From an uncultured Lachnospira sp. (GTDB lineage: Bacteria; Bacillota; Clostridia; Lachnospirales; Lachnospiraceae), in assembly GCA_949002095.1 (NCBI GenBank), contig CARJMT010000007.1, positions 6,024 to 70,023 of the forward strand: 64,000 nt of DNA, in the 5' to 3' direction. Within the stretch, counting starts at the first letter, position 1. The number at the start of each line of letters is the position of its first letter. The notes beneath the pieces were generated by a model, which had not been told where the DNA came from, ran no database searches, and worked only from the letters and a program-made list of their open reading frames with translations. Below are positions 12,593-12,988 of the stretch, piece by piece. The position numbers and the translations under genes are program-made.

Positions 12593-12665
12593 GGTCGGGT
12601 GACGGAACGGCATACGTACGAAGCTCAAACCTTCGGTTTTGTGGGTTCGAATCCCACTCCGACTA
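12593..12665 (+). tRNA. type I tRNA with Leu anticodon CAA (short variable loop)
   Basis: GGTCGGG/TCCGACT, CGAAG-CTCAAAC-CTTCG, 5 nt variable GTTTT, GTGGG-TTCGAAT-CCCAC, discriminator A. Confidence 0.55.
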
Positions 12666-12915
12666 CTAAAACCTTCGCTAAAAATACTCAATATAGACGA
12701 ATTTGTGAATAGTAGGGTAGGACCCCTGTTAGGTTAAGTCTCCGAAAGTAGCAGTTAGTAGTCTTACGGCAGTCCAAGGTGGGAGTGATAAGTTCAGCGT
12801 AATGAGTATACGAGACTTATGTAGTTACCGCTGCGGCAGTTGGTTTCTGCGAAGGTCACCAACAAAAAGTATTTCTAATGTGTTCATATGCAATATGTCC
12901 TCTTATGAGGACTAT

Positions 12916-12988
12916 GGGCGAGTGACGGAATGGCATACGTGCTGGTCTTAGAAACCAGATTTTGTGGGTTCGACTCCCACCTCGCCTA
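12916..12988 (+). tRNA. type I tRNA with Leu anticodon TAG, paralog of 12593..12665
   Basis: GGGCGAG/CTCGCCT, same D-arm GACGGAATGGCATACGT, CTGGT-CTTAGAA-ACCAG, GTGGG-TTCGACT-CCCAC. Confidence 0.55.

Follow-up and report, generated by a model that had tools for sequence, protein, structure and literature searches.

Can a transfer RNA (tRNA) that carries a leucine anticodon on a body without the long variable arm still be a leucine tRNA? This question is raised by two genes in the 64,000-nucleotide stretch of contig CARJMT010000007.1 that we analysed (hereafter the window), namely tRNA-Leu(CAA) at 12593..12665 and tRNA-Leu(UAG) at 12916..12988, both on the + strand. Leucine tRNAs are class II outside animal mitochondria according to the textbook rule, while the variable loops of these two genes have only 5 nucleotides (nt), i.e., they are of type I. 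The initial annotation had described them as paralogous type I tRNAs with the Leu anticodons CAA and TAG, and thus as a departure from the bacterial norm. Our analysis agrees with this description, as the D-arm, the loops CTCAAAC and CTTAGAA, the 5-nt variable loops, and A73 all match. Judged from sequence, the two genes are quite probably functional tRNA-Leu isoacceptors, which would have lost the variable arm but kept the features read by leucyl-tRNA synthetase (LeuRS).

Structure and conservation of the two genes

ARAGORN calls both genes, giving 12593-12666 for tRNA-Leu(caa) and 12916-12989 for tRNA-Leu(tag), and they match the Rfam tRNA model RF00005 with 49.8 bits for the CAA gene and 62.0 bits for the UAG gene (gathering score 29). 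They are aligned end to end with the model positions 1-71 without large insertion, the sole extra nucleotides being single bases within the D-loop and within the variable loop. Counted to the discriminator A73, each gene is 73 nt long. The CAA gene is read directly as GGTCGGG-TG-ACG-GAACGGCATA-CGT-A-CGAAG-CTCAAAC-CTTCG-GTTTT-GTGGG-TTCGAAT-CCCAC-TCCGACT-A, and the UAG gene as GGGCGAG-TG-ACG-GAATGGCATA-CGT-G-CTGGT-CTTAGAA-ACCAG-ATTTT-GTGGG-TTCGACT-CCCAC-CTCGCCT-A. Each therefore has a 7-base-pair (bp) acceptor stem, a D-arm, a 5-bp anticodon stem, a 7-nt anticodon loop with U33, a 5-bp T stem, and a GTTCRAnYC loop, as expected for a cloverleaf.

In the CAA gene, the acceptor stem GGTCGGG/TCCGACT contains a G1-U72 wobble, the D stem has 3 bp, the anticodon loop is CUCAAAC, the variable loop is GUUUU (5 nt), and the T-arm is GTGGGTTCGAATCCCAC. 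In the UAG gene, the acceptor stem is GGGCGAG/CTCGCCT, again with G1-U72, the anticodon loop CUUAGAA has A37 and not G37, the variable loop is AUUUU (5 nt), and the T-arm is GTGGGTTCGACTCCCAC. CCA is encoded in neither gene, which also holds for most tRNAs of the array in which they lie, and the base 5' of each gene is T. A class II tRNA has a variable arm of more than 10 nt, and since the 73 nt here are already filled by four complete helices, there is no room for such an arm. This excludes an alternative fold with a long variable arm, which the initial annotation had named as a possible refutation. On the other hand, the tRNA-Leu(UAA) of the same array (12278..12360, + strand; ARAGORN; Rfam 58.9 bits) is a canonical type II tRNA with a 14-nt variable region, just as had been noted. 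Its D-arm, TGGCGGAACTGGCAGACGC, is the nearest to those of the two type I genes among the 29 tRNAs of the window.

The D-arm TGACGGAA[C/T]GGCATACGT is common to both type I genes. They are identical at 18 of 19 positions in this arm, 4 of 5 in the variable loop, and 16 of 17 in the T-arm. The almost identical scaffold that had been claimed is thus found in these parts, but it does not extend to the acceptor and anticodon stems, which differ, and the overall identity is 78%.

For the conservation analysis, we collected 50 distinct type I tRNA-Leu from phage contigs, one T5-like phage, and the window, and aligned them in 77 columns (alignment A1). Standard pairs occupy 97.9% of the cloverleaf cells, against 62.5% in shuffles and 36-46% in slid controls. 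Both-sided (compensatory) changes are seen in 19 of the 20 pairs, the observed covariation score is reached by 0 of 500 shuffles, and all helices are supported by covariation across the 50 relatives. That is, the type I tRNA-Leu are under family-wide purifying selection as tRNAs. The same is apparent at closer range. In the contig L010, the closest relative (~85% identical over the array), the ortholog of the UAG gene is identical at 72 of 73 positions, compared with an identity of 91-93% for the flanking spacers; the CAA gene shows 11 differences from its L010 ortholog, including compensatory doubles at 5:68, 6:67, and 11:24. Across many phages, one anticodon stem is retained in the CAA lineage and another in the UAG lineage, which indicates that the two genes are old paralogs and did not arise from a recent duplication.

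These data bear directly on the idea that the genes are decaying pseudogenes or tRNA-like relics. Such an origin would fit the minimum free energy (MFE) fold of the CAA gene, which is an alternative structure, whereas that of the UAG gene is the cloverleaf, and it would also fit the G-U at 1:72 in both genes. We accept the cloverleaf for the CAA gene despite its other MFE fold, because of the covariation across the 50 relatives. A decaying gene would hardly be expected to show the near-identity of the UAG gene with its ortholog next to more divergent spacers, the compensatory changes of the CAA gene, the strong covariation in the family, and the high Rfam scores, and we find the pseudogene idea hardly credible.

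Leucine identity and codon meaning

The long arm is reported to be dispensable for leucylation by the LeuRS of Escherichia coli and Aquifex aeolicus (PMC9976931, PMC2377443), and in Aquifex its deletion chiefly reduces the affinity (PMC2377443). The determinants for E. coli LeuRS are A73, the A15-U48 pair, and the tertiary core (PMC9976931). Regarding the first, both window genes have A73, which automatic scoring finds in 47 of 48 family members; after three by-eye register corrections of mis-registered ARAGORN calls, the number is 50 of 50. The window genes also share the A15-U48 (reverse-Levitt) pair, whose frequency is 98% among type I Leu and likewise 98% among type II Leu tRNAs, but 28% among the 786 non-Leu tRNAs from the same loci. 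For the tertiary core (U8-A14, G18G19 with A20a, U54-A58, U55, and C56), all the nucleotides are in place, though no tertiary pairing is itself inferred from them. Within A1, U8, A15, G18, U48, U54, and A58 are invariant, and A14, G19, A20a, U55, and C56 are conserved to at least 90%. The identity-element analysis that had been proposed for these genes has thus found the full LeuRS set in both of them.

The bodies as a whole also resemble those of leucine tRNAs. When D-arms are compared, the nearest tRNA outside type I Leu is a type II Leu for 31 of 48 family members, while type II Leu make up 7.6% of the candidates. We further scored the genes with isotype profile hidden Markov models, which describe the bodies without the anticodon arm and the variable region, and from whose building type I Leu were excluded. 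The CAA gene scores 37.6 bits as Leu (next isotype Lys, 18.5) and the UAG gene 40.1 bits (next isotype Tyr, 22.4), so both are Leu by 18-19 bits. Moreover, a type II tRNA-Leu at the locus L133 has the D-arm and the T-arm of the window UAG gene, the main difference being GTCCGTAAGGGCAT in place of the window TTTT. The simplest reading of this comparison is that the variable stem-loop would have been deleted from an ordinary tRNA-Leu. At the sequence level, then, both genes pass every test for a bacterial tRNA-Leu except the long arm. As an observation on the acceptor end, the G1-U72 wobble is present in all three Leu genes of the window, and in A1 and the loci L002-L104 it is found in 24 of 48 type I Leu, 19 of 63 type II Leu, and 68 of 766 other tRNAs.

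The meaning of the codons was derived from the phage GyrB/ParE-like and GyrA-like proteins, aligned to the solved bacterial ParE, GyrB, and GyrA structures. UUG stands opposite Leu at 19 of 45 positions and opposite L/I/V/M/F at 37 of 45; the corresponding numbers are 24 and 34 of 50 for CUN, and 25 and 36 of 53 for UUA, the control, which is read by the type II tRNA. The background is ~9% for Leu and ~28% for L/I/V/M/F. By this comparison, UUG and CUN mean leucine in this phage. The homologs of the GyrB-like protein, which are phage relatives only at 77-95% identity, were rejected as unfit for the code test, being conceptual translations themselves.

According to the initial annotation, a type I body with Leu anticodons may be charged by a different synthetase. 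In its full form this would be a sense-codon reassignment or a deliberate mistranslation, in which the type I body is charged by an enzyme other than LeuRS and UUG and/or CUN are read otherwise. The type I body is indeed atypical for LeuRS, which was the concern behind the suggestion, and type I non-Leu tRNAs with a UAG anticodon do exist in fungal mitochondria, i.e., the yeast mitochondrial tRNA-Thr(UAG) and the Ashbya tRNA-Ala(UAG) (PMC7609411). However, the anticodon loops here have 7 nt and not 8. At the pair 3:70, the CAA gene has U-A and the UAG gene G-C, and the family members show CG, UA, GC, or AU but never the G-U (G3:U70) of tRNA-Ala. Neither the G73 and long arm of tRNA-Ser nor the G-1 with C73 of tRNA-His is found, and most other synthetases require their own anticodon (PMC9976931). 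UUG and CUN fall on Leu/hydrophobic positions no less often than UUA, which makes reassignment, or charging by an enzyme other than LeuRS, unlikely, and as the codons mean Leu, a phage tRNA inserting another residue would harm conserved positions. Together with the full bacterial LeuRS identity set and the lead of the Leu profile, this speaks against the suggestion of a different synthetase, and we regard reassignment as largely refuted and very unlikely.

In the 49 open reading frames (ORFs) examined, leucine is encoded by UUA (30%), CUU (25%), UUG (21%), CUG (13%), CUC (6%), and CUA (5%). As regards the codon skew that had been suggested for UUG and CUA, UUG is common, while CUA is the rarest of the six, with no CUA signal. 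Probably the UAG tRNA serves the whole CUN box (49% of the Leu codons), in which case no special CUA signal is expected.

If the two genes are functional tRNA-Leu, the following course can be proposed. The ancestor would be an ordinary long-armed tRNA-Leu whose variable stem-loop shrank to a 5-nt loop. A strong phage promoter would drive a polycistronic tRNA block that contains the genes, the host RNase P and RNase Z would trim the transcripts, a CCA-adding enzyme would supply CCA, and the host LeuRS would attach leucine. With the type II gene as the third member, they would form a minimal Leu set for the six codons, in which UAA reads UUA and UUG, CAA reads UUG, and UAG reads the CUN box, assuming that U34 of the latter reads all four CUN codons.

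Besides the G1-U72 wobble, four further points weigh against this account. Firstly, Leu is not the top-scoring profile for 17 of the 48 family members, which belong to a second D-arm subfamily, one without the window genes. Secondly, the UAG gene has A37 where G37 (1-methylguanosine, m1G37) is usual for CUN readers; A37 is found in 13 of 20 type I UAG genes, against 1 of 5 type II UAG genes. Thirdly, the codon test gives the meaning of a codon and not the identity of the tRNA that reads it. Finally, E. coli LeuRS failed completely on the type I tRNA-Leu(CAA) of Streptomyces coelicolor (PMC6614811), so a short arm is not automatically tolerated.

The last point deserves a closer comparison. The S. 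coelicolor tRNA, which also has a 5-nt loop, is leucylated by the single LeuRS of that organism, as determined experimentally, and five nt is the minimum loop length (PMC6614811). This charging depends on a special leucine-specific domain of the enzyme, ScoLeuRS (PMC6614811). Unlike the phage genes, the S. coelicolor gene is chromosomal and essential to its host, its position 48 is C and not the U of the phage family, and A73 is no determinant there (PMC6614811). The Streptomyces and phage cases are therefore not equivalent, because the A15-U48 pair, which is read by E. coli LeuRS, is kept here. On the other hand, an engineered armless E. coli tRNA-Leu is charged by LeuRS given A73 and an intact D/T-loop core, as summarised from Larkin et al. 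2002 in PMC9976931, and armless variants of the Aquifex tRNA-Leu are chargeable in a configuration as here (Yao et al. 2008, PMC2377443), although both are engineered molecules with reduced affinity and not natural genes. The type I tRNA-Leu of animal mitochondria takes its identity from A73 and A14 (PMC9976931), but it is organellar, of relaxed structure, charged by a dedicated LeuRS, and unrelated in sequence.

Overall, both genes can be labelled tRNA-Leu in annotation with reasonable confidence, and there is no sign that UUG or CUN is rewritten by the phage.

Short-armed tRNA-Leu in phage arrays and other genomes

When 24 kb of the window were compared by megablast with 50,697 phage records, no match was obtained. 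There is thus no annotated close relative, and the relatives were taken from IMG/VR. In this database, the 18-nt D-arm TGACGGAAYGGCATACGT was found in 23 contigs, and 80 loci were obtained independently, by homology to the protein whose gene lies just downstream of the array. ARAGORN found 1088 tRNAs over all the D-arm contigs and protein-anchored loci. The two architectures were counted at the 73 loci with tRNA calls that are anchored by protein homology only, so that the counts are unbiased for tRNA sequence. At these loci, type I accounts for 26 of 88 tRNA-Leu, which breaks down to 11 of 14 Leu(UAG), 10 of 22 Leu(CAA), and 5 of 51 Leu(UAA), while it accounts for 0 of 62 tRNA-Ser. Four genes in the relatives were called by ARAGORN as type I tRNA-Tyr; they are heterogeneous, some with ATA anticodons and poor stems, and we do not take them as a family.

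Among deposited sequences, the nearest by blastn are the tRNA-Leu genes of T5-like phages, where a type I tRNA-Leu(UAA) occurs in 327 phage GenBank records at 95% identity or more. The statement that phage tRNA-Leu are normally type II is thus half true. Short-armed forms make up ~30% of the tRNA-Leu in this large gut phage group, are near-universal in T5-like phages, and never include tRNA-Ser. This survey means that the textbook rule fails systematically in phage tRNA arrays. The pattern, in which Leu but never Ser is of type I, matches the report that LeuRS tolerates the loss of the arm and SerRS, the seryl-tRNA synthetase, does not (PMC9976931).

As an example from the T5-like phages (Demerecviridae), the tRNA-Leu(UAA) of Salmonella phage beppo (NC_092682.1, 83292-83368) has the sequence GGGGGTGTAATCGAATTGGCATAGGTACTGGACTTAAAATTCAGGTTTTGTGGGTTCGAATCCCACCACCCCTACCA. 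Its 5-nt GUUUU loop and its T-arm are those of the window CAA gene; A73, A15-U48, and a D-arm of Leu type are present too, and the gene is part of a phage tRNA array and annotated as tRNA-Leu in GenBank. It differs in its anticodon, since the UAA tRNA of the window is type II, in an encoded CCA, in its Enterobacteriaceae host, and in a D-loop that is one nt longer (AAUUGG vs AAYGG in the window). Our literature search found short-armed phage tRNA-Leu mentioned only in passing, and no paper on the missing arm, structure, or charging of the T5-like tRNA-Leu or devoted to phage type I tRNA-Leu, so their prevalence in phage arrays seems under-described. These genes offer a natural test set for what bacterial LeuRS require, and T5 with E. 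coli would be a tractable pair, which is of particular interest since E. coli LeuRS was reported to be unable to charge the Streptomyces type I tRNA-Leu.

The D-arm itself is characteristic of leucine tRNAs in cellular genomes as well. In one genome per species for 185,579 species, the exact 18-nt D-arm has 59 matches, of which 25 lie inside tRNA genes, and these are tRNA-Leu without exception (20 type II and 5 type I). The remaining 34 matches lie in coding or non-tRNA sequence and were discarded; ~35 are expected by chance. In the viral contigs, all 22 tRNA matches are Leu as well. The type II genes sharing the D-arm belong to Sorangium tRNA arrays, bacteria of the candidate phyla radiation (CPR), and a planctomycete, and the type I genes to three multi-tRNA stretches, a 682-bp contig with 4 tRNAs, and one single-tRNA stretch. 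One of the cellular contigs, L149 (JAEDOA010000004.1, 36.9 kb, from an Erysipelotrichaceae metagenome-assembled genome), carries in a 13-tRNA stretch a type I tRNA-Leu(tag) that differs from that of the window at 2 of 73 positions. The contig probably stems from a related phage or prophage that ended up in the Erysipelotrichaceae bin, which makes it a candidate clue to the host. Two Nostoc contigs, L109 and L153, carry tRNA-Leu(CAG)-like genes with the same D-arm, an ATTTT variable loop, and ~25 extra nt at the place of the T-arm; ARAGORN makes no call for them.

Type I tRNA-Leu as such is already established, i.e., in animal mitochondria, in S. coelicolor (PMC6614811), and in a mycobacterial cluster (PMC6582537). 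The last is the short-loop tRNA-Leu(TAG) of Mycobacterium mucogenicum and M. phocaicum, which has the same anticodon as one of our genes and lies in a mobile array with homing endonuclease genes (PMC6582537). The mycobacterial tRNA clusters are horizontally acquired, and their authors suggested a phage origin (PMC6582537). The host there is actinobacterial, however, and the gene is mentioned in a single sentence (PMC6582537). The likeness here is one of anticodon, loop length, and setting.

The survey also bears on whether these RNAs serve translation at all. It had been suggested that they may act as decoys for anticodon nucleases; in a broader form of the idea, they would be RNAs made to absorb these or other tRNA-binding defence proteins. 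In favour of this, overexpressed phage tRNA-Tyr can be a partial decoy for the Septu defence system (PMC13096335), and the anticodon loops are somewhat non-canonical, the CAA gene having C38 and the UAG gene A37. But no locus has the same Leu anticodon in the type I as well as the type II form, which means that the short form replaces the long form and is not added to it. The type I gene is thus the sole copy of its anticodon at a locus, which weakens the decoy idea, and the three Leu tRNAs of the window form a complete decoding set. Besides, the genes keep full aminoacylation determinants, and their acceptor stem is under purifying selection with compensatory changes, while a pure decoy needs neither. 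We therefore consider a decoy function unlikely.

If the genes are working tRNA-Leu, it may still be asked why the arm was lost. The loss could be a neutral reduction, with LeuRS not needing the arm as SerRS does, or it could reflect selection to escape tRNA-targeting defence. In the latter case, the long arm of class II tRNAs would be recognised or cleaved by some host effectors, and translation would persist on the short-armed forms when the host tRNA-Leu is inactivated. There are related observations in other systems. The PtuAB of Retron-Eco7 and Septu cleaves tRNA-Tyr within its variable loop, and the T5 and SP15 tRNA-Tyr, in which this loop is different, resists and neutralises the PtuAB defence (PMC12673091, PMC13096335, PMC11555353). 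Like the present genes, the resistant tRNA-Tyr is a phage copy of a class II tRNA with a variable region unlike that of the host (PMC11555353, PMC12673091, PMC13096335); unlike them, it is of another isotype, and its arm is lengthened or changed instead of deleted. Defence evasion, for which resistance has been shown experimentally in the case of Tyr, could extend to Leu. In addition, the abortive-infection toxin AbiEii, like MenT3, prefers long-armed class II tRNAs, and MenT1 targets a tRNA-Leu (preprint, bioRxiv 10.64898/2026.01.19.700257).

The frequency of type I Leu in the phage arrays (26/88) and the mixed contexts of its cellular occurrences would agree with such a role. However, no defence system that cuts the variable arm of tRNA-Leu is known to us. 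The same phage retains type II Leu(UAA), Tyr, and Ser tRNAs, and the restriction of type I to Leu as opposed to Ser is equally explained by neutral loss. Loss of the arm under selection by defence is thus possible for these genes, but we put it forward tentatively. Somewhat more doubtful is the general form of the idea, in which the recurrent type I tRNA-Leu of phage arrays, including that of T5, would be an adaptive counter-defence, invisible to AbiEii/MenT-type nucleotidyltransferases and PtuAB-type nucleases. It nevertheless gives a concrete and testable link to the field of tRNA-targeting anti-phage defence, and if true, type I tRNA-Leu would be a so far unrecognised class of anti-defence gene.

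The tRNA array and its neighbourhood

The window is part of a large gut-Firmicute phage, whose endolysin has its nearest counterparts in Acutalibacter, Faecalibacterium, and Ruminococcus phages, and which encodes topoisomerase II subunits, DNA ligase, RNA ligase, and PhoH. ARAGORN finds 29 tRNA genes between 6675 and 18756, all on the + strand. Six near-identical promoter copies, with ATTGATTTT, a 17-nt spacer, and TGnTATAATATTTATATAAGA (TTGATT/TGnTATAAT), are spread through this array at 8990-9035, 10246-10292, 11505-11545, 14455-14500, 14836-14880, and 16033-16080, and the ~45-nt element recurs many times in the related phage contigs L010, L052, L061, L063, and L066. From the alignment of the six copies, the one at 11505..11533 (+ strand) is of the sigma-70/sigma-A consensus type, with TTGATT, a 17-nt spacer, and the extended -10 TGaTATAAT. 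Downstream of this copy follows the block Met-Tyr-Leu(UAA)-Leu(CAA)-Leu(UAG)-Thr-Phe-Ser-Ser (11810-13914), with no convincing terminator between the promoter and the Leu genes, and we infer that this promoter may drive the block from Met to Ser. Terminator-like matches inside both type I Leu genes were dismissed as a pattern artefact made of the anticodon hairpin and the U-rich variable loop.

The spacers 12361-12592, 12666-12915, and 12989-13208 (220-250 nt) contain no notable ORF and no Rfam match, and the folds of the Leu-flanking spacers are not stronger than those of shuffles (z -0.97 and -0.41). These spacers are 86-93% identical to L010, which is a conservation equal to or above that of the tRNAs (85-99%).

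Several other members of the array are unusual. At 6750-6868 (+), beginning 2 nt past tRNA-Ile(tat), Rfam finds a tRNA (51.4 bits) whose anticodon loop is interrupted by 52 inserted nt; ARAGORN in intron mode reads it as tRNA-Phe(aaa) and places a 46-nt intron at 38/39. A GGATTA/TAATCC hairpin lies within the insert, which is too small to be a group I intron. At 10439-10512 (+), a tRNA is found by Rfam alone (30.9 bits), with two mismatched acceptor pairs and the loop CUCUCAA, i.e., the anticodon CUC (Glu). ARAGORN calls no tRNA-Glu in the window, so the gene may represent this otherwise absent isotype or a decayed copy. The tRNA-Thr(agt) at 13209-13281 (+; Rfam 56.3 bits) has the loop AGAGTGG, in which G33 replaces the near-universal U and is followed by A34. 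Among the related loci L025-L104, 29 carry altogether 33 tRNAs with the anticodon CTA (amber; 'Pyl' in ARAGORN), and two tRNAs have TTA, which suggests stop-codon recoding in these relatives. The window has no tRNA with a CTA or TTA anticodon, and its ORFs are intact under the standard code.

Directly after the last tRNA, a 498-amino-acid (aa) protein is encoded at 18819-20315 (+). It contains DUF2828 and DUF7788, matches phrog_850 'RNA-binding protein', and is conserved beside tRNA arrays in at least 194 viral contigs; it looks Ro60/TROVE-like. Further downstream, a 516-aa ORF at 25681-27231 (+) is an SPFH/flotillin protein, and an 837-aa ORF at 30746-33259 (+) matches the shoulder and repeat domains of the major vault protein (PF11978, 7e-22; PF17795). 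The presence of a vault-protein homolog together with a possibly TROVE-like protein in one phage is unusual. Finally, an RNA ligase is encoded at 41197-42441 (+; PF09414 with the PHA02142 OB fold), for which a role in tRNA repair is possible alongside the large tRNA array.

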